In this document: in pieces, positions 27,405 to 32,316 of the stretch
Layout: each line of letters starts with the position of its first letter
Position numbering within the stretch: position 1 is the stretch's first letter
Assembly: GCA_029556475.1 (NCBI GenBank)
Contig: JAKQEP010000076.1
Coordinates: forward strand, 1-59,753
Length of the DNA stretch: 59,753 nucleotides
Source: Candidatus Atribacteria bacterium
GTDB lineage: Bacteria > Atribacterota > Phoenicimicrobiia > Phoenicimicrobiales > Stramentimicrobiaceae
Direction: 5' to 3'
The notes under the pieces: model-generated
Databases searched by the model: none
What the model was told of the DNA's origin: nothing
Seen by the model: only the letters and a program-made list of their open reading frames with translations
Translations under genes and position numbers: made by a program

Positions 27405-28922
27405 TTAAATATTATCAGGAATATTTTTTACATAATCCTTTATTGACCGGGTAAGAGCCTGGGCTACTTTTTCTCTGAATTCAGGCGTTTTTAACAGCTT
27501 CTCCTCATTGGGATTGGAGATGAAACCAACCTCAATCAGCACAGCAGCCATATTCACCCCTTTTAAAACAATAAAAGGAGCTTGTTTAACGCCTCTATTA
27601 GTCAAACCAGTATTTCGTACTATGTTTCCCTGAACTATTTTAGCAAACTCCGTACTAAATCTTATATTTACACTTTCCCCCAAATCATAAAGGATTTTAT
27701 TTAATAGATCCGTTTCTTGATGATAGAATTGACTTGCTCTATTTTCTCGGTCAGCAACATCTTTAGCTGATGCATCAGAAGCATATTTCGAATTTAAAAA
27801 ATAAGTCTCAATTCCTTTAGCAGTAGGGGAACCTTTTTGTATAGCTGAATTGGTATGAATACTAATAAACACAGTTGCCTCTTTCTCCATAGCAATTAAT
27901 GGTCTCTTTTCCAATGGAACATCAACATCTTTTTCCCTAGTAAGATAAACTTTGAAACCATTTTCTTGTAATAATTTCTTCGCCCTTAAGGCAATATCAA
28001 GAACTATATCTTTTTCCTTCAGTCCTCCTGGCCCGATTGCTCCAGGCTGATTACCTCCATGTCCTGGATCTAATACAATAACATAATCGGTATTCTTTTG
28101 AACACCTTCTGTTAACGTTTCTGATTGAATTTCAGTTTGAGAAACAATGTCCATCTGACTCAGGGGAGCAAATATATCTACTACTATACGTTCTGGTGAA
28201 GATAAATTGAATACTTCAAATTCATATTTCCCTTTTAAATCTGCAACAATACGTACTTTTTCGGGAGTAAACTGACCACTTCTTACTCTTTTCACCAATA
28301 AATCATCAACATTTAATTCTTCTTCTTTTTTATTCAATTGCTTCAGAGTGGCATCAATATCAACTACTAATCTTTCAGGTTCTTTTAGGGTTAGAACATG
28401 ATAGGAACTCTTTTCTGATATATCAATAACTATCCTGGTTTTATCCGGATGAGAAAAACTACGAATAGAAGTTACCTGAGGTTTATGACTGGTAATAATT
28501 ATTTCTTTTGAAGCTTGGTTCCATTCAGTCTCTACTTCAGTCAACAACTGTAATACTTCCAAAGGAATCATAACCCTATTTTCAATTATAGAAGGAGCAT
28601 TCTCCAGAATCACTTTTTTCCCATTAAGCTCAGCCTCTAAACTATCTATAACCAGGCTCACCTTTTTCTTTCCTAATTCAAGATTTAATAATTTCAGAAC
28701 AGGAAACCAGGTGATCCTTCCATTCAAGGCCTCAATTACATCCCGGGCTGGTAAAAAAATATGACCGTTCATTACCACTGGCGATACATTAGTAGGTATT
28801 ACTATATCATTCAAGGTAAGTTGCACGTCATTCTGTTCTGCTAAAATGATTTTATATGGTACAAAAAAAAGTAAAATGATGAAAGAAATTATGGCAGCTA
28901 TATAATAATACTTCTTTAACAA
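27405..28922 (-). CDS. N-acetylmuramoyl-L-alanine amidase (copper-amine-oxidase-N/stalk + AMIN + Amidase_3)
   Basis: Signal peptide, TRIVID/PERLVVD AMIN motifs, LDPGHGG, EKD, SIHTNS, LIEVGFISN. Confidence 0.92.
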   Translation of the reverse strand: MLKKYYYIAAIISFIILLFFVPYKIILAEQNDVQLTLNDIVIPTNVSPVVMNGHIFLPARDVIEALNGRITWFPVLKLLNLELGKKKVSLVIDSLEAELNGKKVILENAPSIIENRVMIPLEVLQLLTEVETEWNQASKEIIITSHKPQVTSIRSFSHPDKTRIVIDISEKSSYHVLTLKEPERLVVDIDATLKQLNKKEEELNVDDLLVKRVRSGQFTPEKVRIVADLKGKYEFEVFNLSSPERIVVDIFAPLSQMDIVSQTEIQSETLTEGVQKNTDYVIVLDPGHGGNQPGAIGPGGLKEKDIVLDIALRAKKLLQENGFKVYLTREKDVDVPLEKRPLIAMEKEATVFISIHTNSAIQKGSPTAKGIETYFLNSKYASDASAKDVADRENRASQFYHQETDLLNKILYDLGESVNIRFSTEFAKIVQGNIVRNTGLTNRGVKQAPFIVLKGVNMAAVLIEVGFISNPNEEKLLKTPEFREKVAQALTRSIKDYVKNIPDNI

Positions 28923-29962
28923 TTTCTATGTTCCTCCTGTATCAGGTACCTATATGTTATTACTTTGATTGCAGCCGCAAGTGGTATGGCAAATAATACG
29001 CCTAAAAAACCTAAAAGACCTCCAAAAATCAAAACTGAAAAGATGATAGTTAAGGGGTGCAATCCCAATTCTTTCCCCAGTATTTTTGGGTTTAACCAGA
29101 ATGCTTCGATCTGATTTACAGCAATGAATATAGCAGTTACCATAATATAAACAGACCAGGGTTTACCTATGGTAAAAAACAAGGATAAAACCCAGCCAAC
29201 AATTGGCCCAAAATAAGGAATAAAATTTAATATTCCTGATATCATACCAATAATAAGAAAGAATTTTATTCTTAACAGATAAAGGCCAAAGGTAATCAAC
29301 ACTCCTACCAAAAAGCAGACAATAAGGCGTCCCCTGATAAAATTGCTTAATATTTTATCAATTTCTATAACAATTTCTTTATAATCTTTTTTACTAGGAG
29401 GTGATACGAATATGAGTAAGTTGTCCTTAAGGAGGTCCATATCTATTAACAGATAATAAAGAATAAGAGGAATGATAAATATCCCAAAACCAAATTTTGT
29501 AACAAAAGATGATAAGGTAAATATTGCGATCCTGGAAAATGTCAACAGACTTTTTTGTATTTCTGTAAAAATATTGCCGATAAAAGTTTCCAGATTTTCG
29601 GAATCCATAATCCTGTTAAAAAAGGGTTCAAAAGAAAATAATATATTTTGAAGTCCTGCTAATAAGCCTGGAATTTCTTTATATAGCTGATTCAACTCAT
29701 TAATAGTATTGGGGATGATAAAAAATAAAAAGATAATCGTAAAAGATAATATAATCAAAAAGATTATTAAGATAGATATTGATTTTTTCAGACCTTTAGT
29801 GAGCAGAAAATTATAAAGGGGACTAAAAAAATAAGCTAGAAAAAGTGCCAAACTGAAATATATTAAAATCCAGTTTATCCTGTGCGCTACATAACAAAAA
29901 ATGAACAAAGCAACTATTAACTGTATTAAAAACCTGTTCTGTCTATCTATTAGTGAATACAA
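28916..29962 (-). CDS. AI-2E family transporter
   Basis: Multi-TM, IPYFGP, QIE...L.PKILG..LGLHP, G.LGVLFAIP. Confidence 0.9.
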   Translation of the reverse strand: MYSLIDRQNRFLIQLIVALFIFCYVAHRINWILIYFSLALFLAYFFSPLYNFLLTKGLKKSISILIIFLIILSFTIIFLFFIIPNTINELNQLYKEIPGLLAGLQNILFSFEPFFNRIMDSENLETFIGNIFTEIQKSLLTFSRIAIFTLSSFVTKFGFGIFIIPLILYYLLIDMDLLKDNLLIFVSPPSKKDYKEIVIEIDKILSNFIRGRLIVCFLVGVLITFGLYLLRIKFFLIIGMISGILNFIPYFGPIVGWVLSLFFTIGKPWSVYIMVTAIFIAVNQIEAFWLNPKILGKELGLHPLTIIFSVLIFGGLLGFLGVLFAIPLAAAIKVITYRYLIQEEHRNC

Positions 29963-30104
29963 TATTTTTCTTCCTATTTCTTAACAAATCTATAAAAAAC
30001 AAGACTGAATTATAATATACTATGATAGAATATTCATTATTCTCATTTCAGATTATTTGCGGGACCATCACTCACTTTCCAATATAATAACAAAATTATA
30101 GATA

Positions 30105-30458
30105 TGGTGGAGGCGGCGAGAATCGAACTCGCGTCCAGAGAACCGTTGATAAAAAACACTACGAGCGTAGTCTATGAACTTTTTTTGCGATACTTAATAC
30201 CCATAGACCGGTTTCAAGTATGCTATCCCCTAATTTTTCTCTGTATCAATCGGAGCGGTTGATACAGATATCCTGTTATATATTACACCTATAAAAAGCT
30301 CACAGGCATAGCCTTTTTACAGATGAGCAGCTTTATTAAGCTGCTAAAGCCAATTCGTAATCGTTGGCAGTTATTGTTTTTCCCGTTGTTTATCGAGGAC
30401 CAGGAACCTCGGCTCGCATTTCTTACCTCTGTTTTCCCTGTCGATACCTATCGCCCCC
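30105..30458 (-). ncRNA. ssrA: tmRNA, tag (A)ANDYELALAA
   Basis: 5' GGGGGCG pairs with 3' CGCCTCC-ACCA including the G3.U alanine determinant; T-arm GCGAGTTCGATTCTCGC; ATAACT resume context then tag ORF 30368-30336. Confidence 0.96.
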
Positions 30459-30921
30459 AAATCTTATTTTTTAATTCTCTTTCTGCTTCTCTCTTAATGG
30501 CTCTCTGGGTCAGATCTCTTCTTTTGTCATAAAGCTTCTTACCCTTTGCCAGAGCTATCTCTAACTTGGCATAACCATTTTTAAAATATAACCTAAGGGG
30601 AATCACCGTTACGCCTTTAGTCTCTATATTGCCTCTTATCTTATTTAATTCTCTCTTATTTAAGAGAAGTTTTCTATCTCTCTTTGGCTCCAGATTAAAT
30701 CTATTTCCAAACTGATATGGAGCAATATGCATATTAACAATATATAAATCGTTTCCCTTTAACTGAGCATAACTTTCTTTAATACTTACCTGACTATTCC
30801 TGATTGACTTAACTTCGGTTCCTTTTAAAACAAGACCAGCTTCGAAGCTTTCCAAGATATGGTAATCATGCCATGCTTTCCGGTTTACAGTAACAATTTG
30901 GAATTTTTCTTTCTCAGACAT
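30448..30921 (-). CDS. smpB: SsrA-binding protein
   Basis: NRKA, EAGLVLKGTEVKS, RKLLL, GKKLYDKR. ATG 30921 preferred because an extended -10 lies immediately upstream of the ORF-track TTG 30942. Confidence 0.97.
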   Translation of the reverse strand: MSEKEKFQIVTVNRKAWHDYHILESFEAGLVLKGTEVKSIRNSQVSIKESYAQLKGNDLYIVNMHIAPYQFGNRFNLEPKRDRKLLLNKRELNKIRGNIETKGVTVIPLRLYFKNGYAKLEIALAKGKKLYDKRRDLTQRAIKREAERELKNKIWGR

Positions 30922-30946
30922 CCAATTATCCCTTTGAACCAATTAA

Positions 30947-30955
30947 ATTATAACA
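30947..30955 (-). promoter_or_regulatory. Extended -10 promoter of smpB-ssrA
   Basis: TGtTATAAT ending 26 nt upstream of ATG 30921. Confidence 0.6.
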
Positions 30956-31025
30956 TATTTCCGCTTTTTTTACTATTTATAGTATCCAAAAACTAAATAA
31001 AGGTGTTAAAACATAACTAAATAAA

Positions 31026-32069
31026 TTAACAATTTCTTGATGCCCTCTTTAAGCGGTCCATAATGGCTCTCCCCATTCCAATATCTTCAAAATTTTCAGA
31101 AATTATTATATCACATTTTAATTCATCCAAAATTCTCAGCTGAGCATACAAATTACGGGCACAGGAATTAAGGTCTTTAGCTTCCCCAAGCACTTTAACT
31201 ATAAACCCGGAATATTTTTCCCGATTTTCCTGACAGGCAATCACTCCAACTTTTTTACCTTTATTTCTATGCTGTAAAGCTATCTTGCGAATCTTTTCAA
31301 TCATCTTCTCATCCTTATCTTTTACCAGTATTAGTTTAGCTAAAGGAGAATAGTGCCTACTTAGCATTCCTGGTGCTTTTTTTATTTTAATATGGTCATC
31401 GGCAATGATGATATCTGGAATTATCTTTTTTAAACTTTCAAAAGTAATACCACCTAATCTCAATATCTGTAAAGGGGACGTAGTGACATCCAATACTGTT
31501 GATTCAAGCCCTATTAAGGTTTCACCACTATCAATAATTATATCTATACTACCCTTTAAATCAGAAATTACATGCCAGGCAGTGGTGGGACTGGTATGAC
31601 TAAACAAATTAGCGCTGGGAGCCGCAATGGGTCGCCGAGCTTCTTTAATCAATCCCAATGCAACCTTATGATCAGGGATACGTATAGCAACAGTATCTAA
31701 CCCGGAAGTAACTATATCTGAAATTGATTTACTCTTTTTTAAAACCATAGTTAACGGACCTGGCCAGAATAATTCACCCAACGTCCTGGCAACATCCGGA
31801 AAAAATTCCACATAATCATATATCTCTTTCAGATTATAGATATGAACAATTAAAGGGTCATAAAAGGGTCTTTTTTTTGCTTGGAATATTTTTAATAGCG
31901 CTTCGGCATTTAAGGCATCTGCTCCTAGCCCATAAACTGTTTCAGTCGGAAATGCCACTAATCTGCCCTCTCTAATTGCCTGACCAGCAAGCTGTAAGTA
32001 TTTCCAATCAATATTATCAGGATCTATTTTTATAATTCTGGTATCTACACTGTTACTATATTCTTTCAC
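31026..32069 (-). CDS. sua5: L-threonylcarbamoyladenylate synthase, Sua5 (long) form
   Basis: FPTETVYGL, KKRP..PLIVH, FWPGPLT, APSAN, EST, PGM..RHY linker and SUA5 C-terminal domain. Confidence 0.95.
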   Translation of the reverse strand: MKEYSNSVDTRIIKIDPDNIDWKYLQLAGQAIREGRLVAFPTETVYGLGADALNAEALLKIFQAKKRPFYDPLIVHIYNLKEIYDYVEFFPDVARTLGELFWPGPLTMVLKKSKSISDIVTSGLDTVAIRIPDHKVALGLIKEARRPIAAPSANLFSHTSPTTAWHVISDLKGSIDIIIDSGETLIGLESTVLDVTTSPLQILRLGGITFESLKKIIPDIIIADDHIKIKKAPGMLSRHYSPLAKLILVKDKDEKMIEKIRKIALQHRNKGKKVGVIACQENREKYSGFIVKVLGEAKDLNSCARNLYAQLRILDELKCDIIISENFEDIGMGRAIMDRLKRASRNC

Positions 32070-32158: not shown

Positions 32159-32233
32159 TGGTGGCGCAAGGGGGAATTGAACCCCCGTTTGCTGATTGAG
32201 AGCCAGCTGAATTAACCACTATTCGATTGCGCC
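32159..32233 (-). tRNA. tRNA-Glu(CTC)
   Basis: GGCGCAA/TTGCGCC acceptor stem, anticodon arm GCTGG-CTCTCAA-TCAGC, GGTTCAATTCC T-loop, encoded CCA. Confidence 0.95.
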
Positions 32234-32242
32234 ACTATAAAT

Positions 32243-32316
32243 TGGCTGAGGGAGGTGGGGTCGAACCACCGCTCCCAGATCCAGAGTCTGGTGTCCTACC
32301 ACTAGACGATCCCTCA
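32243..32316 (-). tRNA. tRNA-Gln(CTG)
   Basis: TGAGGGA/TCCCTCA acceptor stem with U1-A72, anticodon arm CCAGA-CTCTGGA-TCTGG, GGTTCGACCCC, encoded CCA. Confidence 0.95.

Follow-up and report, generated by a model that had tools for sequence, protein, structure and literature searches.

In the window, which is the whole 59,753-nt stretch of Atribacterota DNA analysed here, smpB ends inside ssrA, the gene of the tmRNA whose protein partner it encodes, and an smpB/ssrA overlap recurs in every locus that we read in the window's order. We regard it as somewhat more probable than an even chance that the two genes form one smpB-ssrA operon in which maturation of the tmRNA by RNase P would remove the stop codon of smpB and so limit the yield of SmpB. 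An overlap of this kind had been predicted from the letters of the window, together with a negative feedback on SmpB through trans-translation; the observation is confirmed and the interpretation partly supported, cleavage, tagging and regulation being steps that we infer. How cells balance SmpB and tmRNA is partly understood.

The window comes from the metagenome-assembled genome (MAG) of an uncultured Atribacterota bacterium (173 contigs, 84% complete). We searched 86 Atribacterota species genomes with its SmpB, obtained a match in 71, and read the junction in these 71 loci, 41 in the window's own order and 30 from other families. As sampled, the order comprises two families, 17 genera and 41 smpB loci, with SmpB identity down to 54%, and its MAGs are of a free-living type of about 2 Mb.

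The smpB and ssrA genes of the window

The features concerned are the following, in window coordinates:

30448..30921, minus strand: smpB coding sequence, 157 aa plus TAG, the sole long open reading frame (ORF) there (PF01668)
30105..30458, minus strand: ssrA (tmRNA), one-piece, 354 nt, with encoded CCA (ARAGORN and RF00023)
30333..30368, minus strand: tag frame ANDYELALAA followed by two TAA stops (ARAGORN, gene positions 91-126)
30448..30458, minus strand: smpB/ssrA overlap of 11 nt, GGGGGCGATAG (ARAGORN, RF00023 and ORF letters)
30458..30459, minus strand: predicted RNase P cut site between U(-1) at 30459 and G1 at 30458, positioned from the acceptor stem
30929..30935, minus strand: purine-rich AAAGGGA, 8 nt before the ATG, a putative Shine-Dalgarno-like element
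30947..30955, minus strand: extended -10 TGTTATAAT upstream of smpB, 25 nt before the ATG, the likely smpB-ssrA promoter

The RF00023 model covers ssrA from end to end (positions 1-374 of 374; 207.6 bits for a gathering threshold of 47; E 1.2e-84), and the hallmarks of a tmRNA are present, namely the tag frame and an acceptor stem GGGGGCG/CGCCUCC, including a G3-U pair, followed by ACCA. The +1 of the tmRNA is fixed because GGGGGCG pairs with the 3' CGCCUCC, G3-U included. The smpB gene reads ...AAA AAT AAG ATT TGG GGG CGA TAG at its 3' end, the stop finishing at 30448. With G1 of the tmRNA at 30458 and the TAG at its nucleotides 9-11 (30450..30448), the overlap is therefore 11 nt, and the final three codons (W-G-R) and the stop consist of tmRNA nucleotides 1-11 plus the preceding T. 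A cut at +1 would leave an smpB message ending in ...AAG AUU U. The ORF, ARAGORN and RF00023 thus agree with the original prediction, which had smpB ending in ATT TGG GGG CGA TAG with its stop within the tmRNA and an 11-nt overlap; its assignment of GGGGGCG to the 5' acceptor strand, its tag and its cut position and product were likewise correct in letters and coordinates.

The encoded protein matches PF01668 with 196.9 bits (cut-off 27), residues 11-152 lying on positions 2-143 of the 143-position profile, and solved SmpB chains in the PDB match it as well (best 7ljp_A, E 1.7e-46). Its C-terminal tail is present, the alignment reaching residue 154 in 1p6v_A (156 aa) and residue 155 in 7ljp_A, and this tail (...DKRRDLTQRAIKREAERELKNKI) precedes the WGR add-on. 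The ATG at 30921 lines up with the starts in relatives, where AGGA/GAGG-like stretches also precede the gene. Residues 1-154, the predicted product of the cut message, retain all 143 Pfam SmpB positions and align to residue 154 of 1p6v_A. Where the window SmpB has ...LKNKI before WGR, SmpB of the sister families ends in ...LKYRA or ...KYKV; SmpB(1-154) is as long as the full sister-family protein, so WGR is an addition dictated by what the tmRNA letters encode.

Conservation of the junction

The overlap is found in 41/41 loci of the order, as the 11-nt junction in 40 and with 36 nt in the last (L015). ARAGORN called the tmRNA in 37 of the 41, L015 among them and 36 with the 11-nt overlap (smpB ending in ...WGR-TAG, with GGR in L012); in L008, L020, L029 and L065, where the contig ends 23-250 nt past the stop, the 11-nt junction was judged from the letters only. 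L015, from a genome 68% complete, has one base fewer before the tmRNA +1, and its smpB reads 36 nt into the tmRNA (...YHNGGDRYRQGKQR, then TAA), which is either a true frameshifted terminus or an assembly error. The alignment of junctions in relatives, a check named with the original prediction, came out in its favour, no locus of the 41 having a stop upstream of the tmRNA. The junction recurs in all 41 order loci and is therefore more than chance; the overlap is neither an error nor recent. Note that the TAG at tmRNA nucleotides 9-11 is invariant in the order, which fits a real use of this stop on uncut transcripts, and that the same tmRNA start is common too in phyla without the smpB/ssrA overlap.

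Throughout the phylum, smpB lies directly upstream of ssrA on the same strand (71/71 loci). In the 30 loci outside the order, smpB is separated from ssrA by 0-118 nt, or else the two share 29 nt, distributed as follows:

29-nt overlap in a different frame: two loci (L032 and L035)
stop codon abutting the tmRNA +1 (gap 0): five loci
gap of 4-6 nt: nine loci
gap of 7 nt: three loci
gap of 9-17 nt: seven loci
gap of 36-42 nt: three loci
gap of 118 nt: one locus

The gaps of 0-7 nt in 17/30 of these loci therefore leave no room for an intergenic promoter. Close smpB-ssrA coupling characterises the phylum as a whole, and within it one order has the 11-nt overlap as its fixed state.

Two departures from these patterns were seen outside the order. 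In L032 and L035, which belong to one other Atribacterota family, smpB runs 29 nt into the tmRNA in a different frame (...RRRGRMVSTGI, then TAG), probably an overlap of separate origin. In L033, L036, L037 and L039, the 14 nt before the tmRNA +1 match tmRNA nucleotides 3-16 at 12/14 positions, a score reached by 0-1 of 300 shuffles, and smpB ends in ...AGG GCG TAA AGG TGT; a weaker likeness is seen in L041. A tandem duplication of 16 nt from the tmRNA 5' end would seem to have provided smpB with a stop of its own here, thereby undoing an older overlap; the four loci are close kin and were therefore counted as one event.

Scanning species genomes for the pattern of the tmRNA start gave at least 120 stretches, and we examined 80 loci among the matches listed. 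An smpB lies in the 700-nt upstream flank in 31/80 of these, and the 11-nt overlap is seen in 16 of the 31. Ten of the 16, again among the matches listed, are Atribacterota by name or likeness, including Ca. Phoenicimicrobium oleiphilum and Ca. Sediminicultor tertius, and six lie outside the phylum: an unclassified MAG (L075), a Planctomycetia MAG (L092) and four Nitrospirales loci (L096, L110, L113 and L119). The overlaps outside Atribacterota end in ...RGR or ...GGR, followed by TAG. We also checked 30 smpB loci from 81 Nitrospirales genomes, where the overlap is confined to five close relatives (L195-L199; L199 by junction letters only); of the other loci, 4/30 have gaps of 3-112 nt, 20/30 lack a tmRNA over at least 934 nt and 1/30 is cut by a contig end.

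In five other loci of the scan (L080, L091, L125, L128 and L145), no stop interrupts the frame leading to the tmRNA TAG anywhere in the 700-nt upstream flank, and that frame has no SmpB similarity; these may have arisen by chance, as open frames do in GC-rich DNA, or may belong to other genes with an end inside a tmRNA. The junction of L125 (Aminicenantes) is AT-rich.

These distributions bear on a neutral account of the overlap, to which we give a substantial though minority share of belief. It holds that a single loss in the ancestor of the order removed the spacer together with the original stop, and was tolerated since the in-frame UAG of the tmRNA adds just three residues, that nearly all SmpB is made from uncut nascent transcripts, and that the stop-less leftovers cost the cell little and regulate nothing. 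The junctions of the phylum form a continuum of tight spacings (gap 0 in five loci, 4-7 nt in 12, a 29-nt overlap in two) of which the overlap resembles one end, as spacer drift would produce; its separate origin in the Nitrospirales clade (5/30 loci), the Planctomycetia MAG and the unclassified MAG, in all cases through the same tmRNA UAG, fits an easy and repeatable accident; L015 tolerates a 36-nt read-in; and one sister-family subclade seems to have reversed an overlap by the 16-nt duplication. Against this, the junction persists through two families and 17 genera whose SmpB identity falls to as little as 54%, no reversion was seen in 41 loci, and the whole tmRNA precursor lies on each stop-containing mRNA, so that cleavage by RNase P would be hard to avoid. 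Even if the overlap is mere gene packing, it would mean that bacteria tolerate a routinely stop-less mRNA for a protein of an essential pathway.

Promoters and RNA-library contigs across the junction

The original prediction had noted an extended -10 upstream of smpB and no convincing ssrA promoter within the gene, and both statements hold in the relatives. The extended -10, located at 30955..30947, has a TGnTATAAT counterpart at the matching place in 38/38 order loci with enough upstream DNA, accompanied in 30 of the 38 by a -35 with at least 4/6 matches at a distance of 16-18 nt, and TGnTATA[AC]T recurs in many loci of the sister families too. On the minus strand of the window, consensus scanning lists nothing promoter-like from 30921 to 30459, and the positional scan for -10-like hexamers up to 200 nt from the tmRNA +1 found none common to more than 11/40 order sequences. 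In a codon alignment of the same number of order sequences (40, L015 having been dropped because its end is in another frame), per-codon synonymous entropy shows no strong dip inside smpB; the last ~10 codons display mildly reduced synonymous variation, by -0.27 to -0.52 bits relative to the gene-wide mean per amino acid, which could reflect a weak ssrA promoter or constraints on the RNase P leader. Together, the three analyses reveal no conserved ssrA promoter within smpB.

A hidden promoter in the 3' part of smpB might nevertheless make most of the tmRNA, in which case smpB transcripts reading through the junction would be a minority subject to ordinary translation and decay, and maturation would rarely affect smpB expression. 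Many bacteria have an ssrA with its own promoter, and the mild drop in synonymous variation over the last codons, the A/T-rich smpB end and the weak -10-like hexamers of some relatives (in 5/40, a TAAAAT whose end lies 2 nt short of +1) would agree with one here. We consider this improbable: no such hexamer is widely shared near +1, the consensus scan of the window has no match inside smpB and, in contrast, the upstream TGnTATAAT is kept in 38/38 loci. Moreover, a full smpB mRNA would still contain the tmRNA and hence be an RNase P substrate.

Sequencing data give a hint in the same direction as the upstream promoter. A search of sequencing runs gave 22, of which 18 are recorded as RNA, from sludge, digester and biofilm, each with a quarter to less than half of the search words. 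The RNA data are assembled contigs of four RNA runs, from which RNA ends, processing, strand, membership of a single transcript and expression level are not readable, and such libraries may contain DNA. Three studies each have one contig that spans smpB and the tmRNA and crosses the junction:

30000-30933: X2 contig, depth 358, 27 differences from the window
30000-30926: X3 contig, depth 24, 24 differences from the window
30046-30852: X5 contig, depth 45, 23 differences from the window

The junction contig of X1, with merely 25 nt on the tmRNA side, was left out of this count, and bins without coverage carry no meaning. Contig depth is 0-10 upstream of ~30960, as compared to 24-358 on smpB-ssrA, the drop falling at about 30925-30961; this drop upstream of smpB speaks against mere carry-over of DNA and would suit transcription beginning right behind the -10. 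The contigs hint that junction-spanning smpB-ssrA RNA exists, and as assemblies they do not prove one transcript. An assembly or sequencing error, or a stop loss specific to the strain of the window MAG, which the fragmented state of that genome (173 contigs, 84% complete) and the one-base difference in the junction frame of L015 (68% complete) might have suggested, is refuted by the same junction in 40/41 independent order genomes and in the RNA-library contigs of three studies.

In runs X1, X2 and X3, RNA-library contigs from close relatives have six extra nucleotides (TTTTTC, plus strand) behind window position 30903, equivalent to two additional residues in an EKEK stretch near the SmpB N-terminus.

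tmRNA maturation and the smpB message

For the one-operon reading that we favour, the starting point is observed: the gene anatomy and its conservation, the conserved upstream promoter, RNA-library contigs bridging the junction, and genes for RNase P RNA, ClpP and release factors. In this proposal, smpB and ssrA would be one transcription unit driven from the conserved extended -10 upstream of smpB, and co-transcription would be the main source of tmRNA; nothing points to transcription termination inside the tmRNA. The sole stop of smpB is at tmRNA nucleotides 9-11, therefore each stop-containing smpB mRNA is a tmRNA precursor. RNase P depends on the acceptor stem, the 3' strand of which is 350 nt further along, so that termination at the UAG is open to early ribosomes. 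Ribosomes arriving before the 3' half of the tmRNA is made and folded would thus stop there and release SmpB-WGR. Once the tRNA-like domain forms, RNase P would cut the co-transcript at the tmRNA +1, and the three last codons and the stop would be gone. Later ribosomes would run to ...AAG AUU U and stall. tmRNA-SmpB classically acts on ribosomes stalled at an mRNA 3' end with nothing in the A site, and rescue would append (A)ANDYELALAA to SmpB(1-154) and direct it to proteolysis. Maturation of the tmRNA would in this way cap the amount of SmpB made per transcript and couple SmpB output to tmRNA production, which is where its regulatory value would lie.

The machinery for these steps is encoded in the genome of the window, which carries a full-length type A RNase P RNA (RF00010, 293.9 bits), ClpP (282 bits) and two ORFs with an RF-1 domain, of 351 and 350 aa, presumably release factors 1 and 2, as named from their size. 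The RF-1 domain search of this genome (84% complete) found no ORF of ArfB size; an NFACT_N (RqcH-like) gene is present. The usual degrader of non-stop mRNA is RNase R, and the RNB domain of the RNase R/RNase II family (PF00773) was found in 0/86 Atribacterota genomes, 43 of them at least 90% complete, by a search that was positive in 11/14 known genomes used as control. Judging from these searches, which bear on the fate of the cut message, Atribacterota seem to lack RNase R, the nuclease that usually accompanies trans-translation. The limits of contig-level RNA data, the RNB count, the lack of an ArfB-size ORF, the end-of-gene dip in synonymous variation and the invariant TAG are the points that we count against the one-operon reading.

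The negative feedback on SmpB that had been proposed from the window's letters is rated below a limit on yield, or a coupling to tmRNA maturation. A cut message yields no free SmpB whether rescue is active (the product being tagged and degraded) or not (the ribosome being stalled); true feedback would therefore need a tag-free release route.

A stronger version of the proposal holds that RNase P maturation is a selected timer for SmpB, such that only ribosomes finishing before the tmRNA folds would make stable SmpB, later products being self-tagged, and that this operates in the order and, independently, in the Nitrospirales clade and other lineages. We hold this version to be unlikely, and advance it tentatively for what it would entail. 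If it is true, a single strong promoter would provide abundant tmRNA together with a matched, self-limiting supply of SmpB, and ribosome rescue would have an autoregulatory loop setting its stoichiometry, in a phylum seemingly without RNase R.

The nearest parallel in another rescue system is arfA of E. coli: Garza-Sanchez et al. are said to have found in 2011 that its mRNA is cut by RNase III, becomes non-stop and is regulated by trans-translation. In both cases a ribosome-rescue gene has its mRNA made stop-less by an endonuclease and its product tagged when tmRNA-SmpB is active, which for smpB is the proposal made here. The two differ in the cut, made by RNase III in a hairpin for arfA and predicted for RNase P at the tmRNA for smpB, and in that the arfA product is a backup factor, active when truncated, whose case is experimentally shown, whereas that of smpB is known from sequence.

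The closest precedent for the overlap itself is Candidatus Carsonella ruddii, in which, according to the passages of Hudson, Lau and Williams (2014; PMC4131195) on this overlap, the smpB coding sequence runs into ssrA on the same strand. These passages credit the Carsonella overlap to Mao et al. (2009, RNA Biol 6:355), reason that tmRNA maturation should yield a non-stop smpB mRNA that is a substrate of its own product, and give Carsonella as the only smpB-ssrA overlap among 2031 genome projects surveyed (PMC4131195). Table 4 of the same paper counts 250 overlaps with an upstream coding sequence among 115,660 t(m)RNA genes, mostly tRNAs and in few clades (PMC4131195). As in Carsonella, the smpB stop of the window and of 41/41 order loci lies downstream of the tmRNA +1 on the same strand, and as in the general overlaps described in that paper, an upstream same-strand coding sequence takes its stop inside an RNase P substrate. 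Unlike in the general overlaps, the coding sequence in Atribacterota is that of the tmRNA's own protein partner. Carsonella, as that source describes it, is an extremely reduced endosymbiont whose SmpB is without the central loop and the C-terminal tail and whose overlap is variable, occurring in half of the strains, whereas SmpB of the Atribacterota order is full length, its overlap is fixed at 11 nt in 40/41 loci, and a conserved strong promoter precedes smpB.

Phrase searches of the literature found no paper on the smpB/ssrA overlap besides PMC4131195. The caveat attached to the original prediction, that such overlaps were known in other lineages, was thus well placed, the same feedback idea being in print for Carsonella in that paper's discussion of the overlap, and the feedback concept is not new. 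New are the order-wide fixed overlap in non-reduced bacteria with full-length SmpB, a spacer close to zero throughout the phylum, combined with a conserved promoter ahead of smpB, and the recurrence of the overlap in other lineages, and these data correct the printed statement that the smpB/ssrA overlap occurs in Carsonella alone. The only published natural smpB message that would target itself belongs to a degenerate endosymbiont and could be dismissed as decay; the Atribacterota described here have an intact SmpB and an overlap preserved over two families, with recurrences in other phyla, so that the idea deserves a direct test, for which natural sequences are now at hand.

The two genes have the following neighbours in the window, the Sua5/TsaC gene lying directly upstream of the smpB promoter and the AI-2E family transporter gene downstream of ssrA; the consensus scan placed a promoter-like site before a pair of tRNA genes:

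28916-29962: AI-2E family transporter gene
31026-32069: Sua5/TsaC gene
32369-32342, minus strand: promoter-like site TTGACC-16-TAAAAT
32159-32316, minus strand: tRNA-Glu(CTC) and tRNA-Gln(CTG), 10 nt apart, behind this promoter-like site
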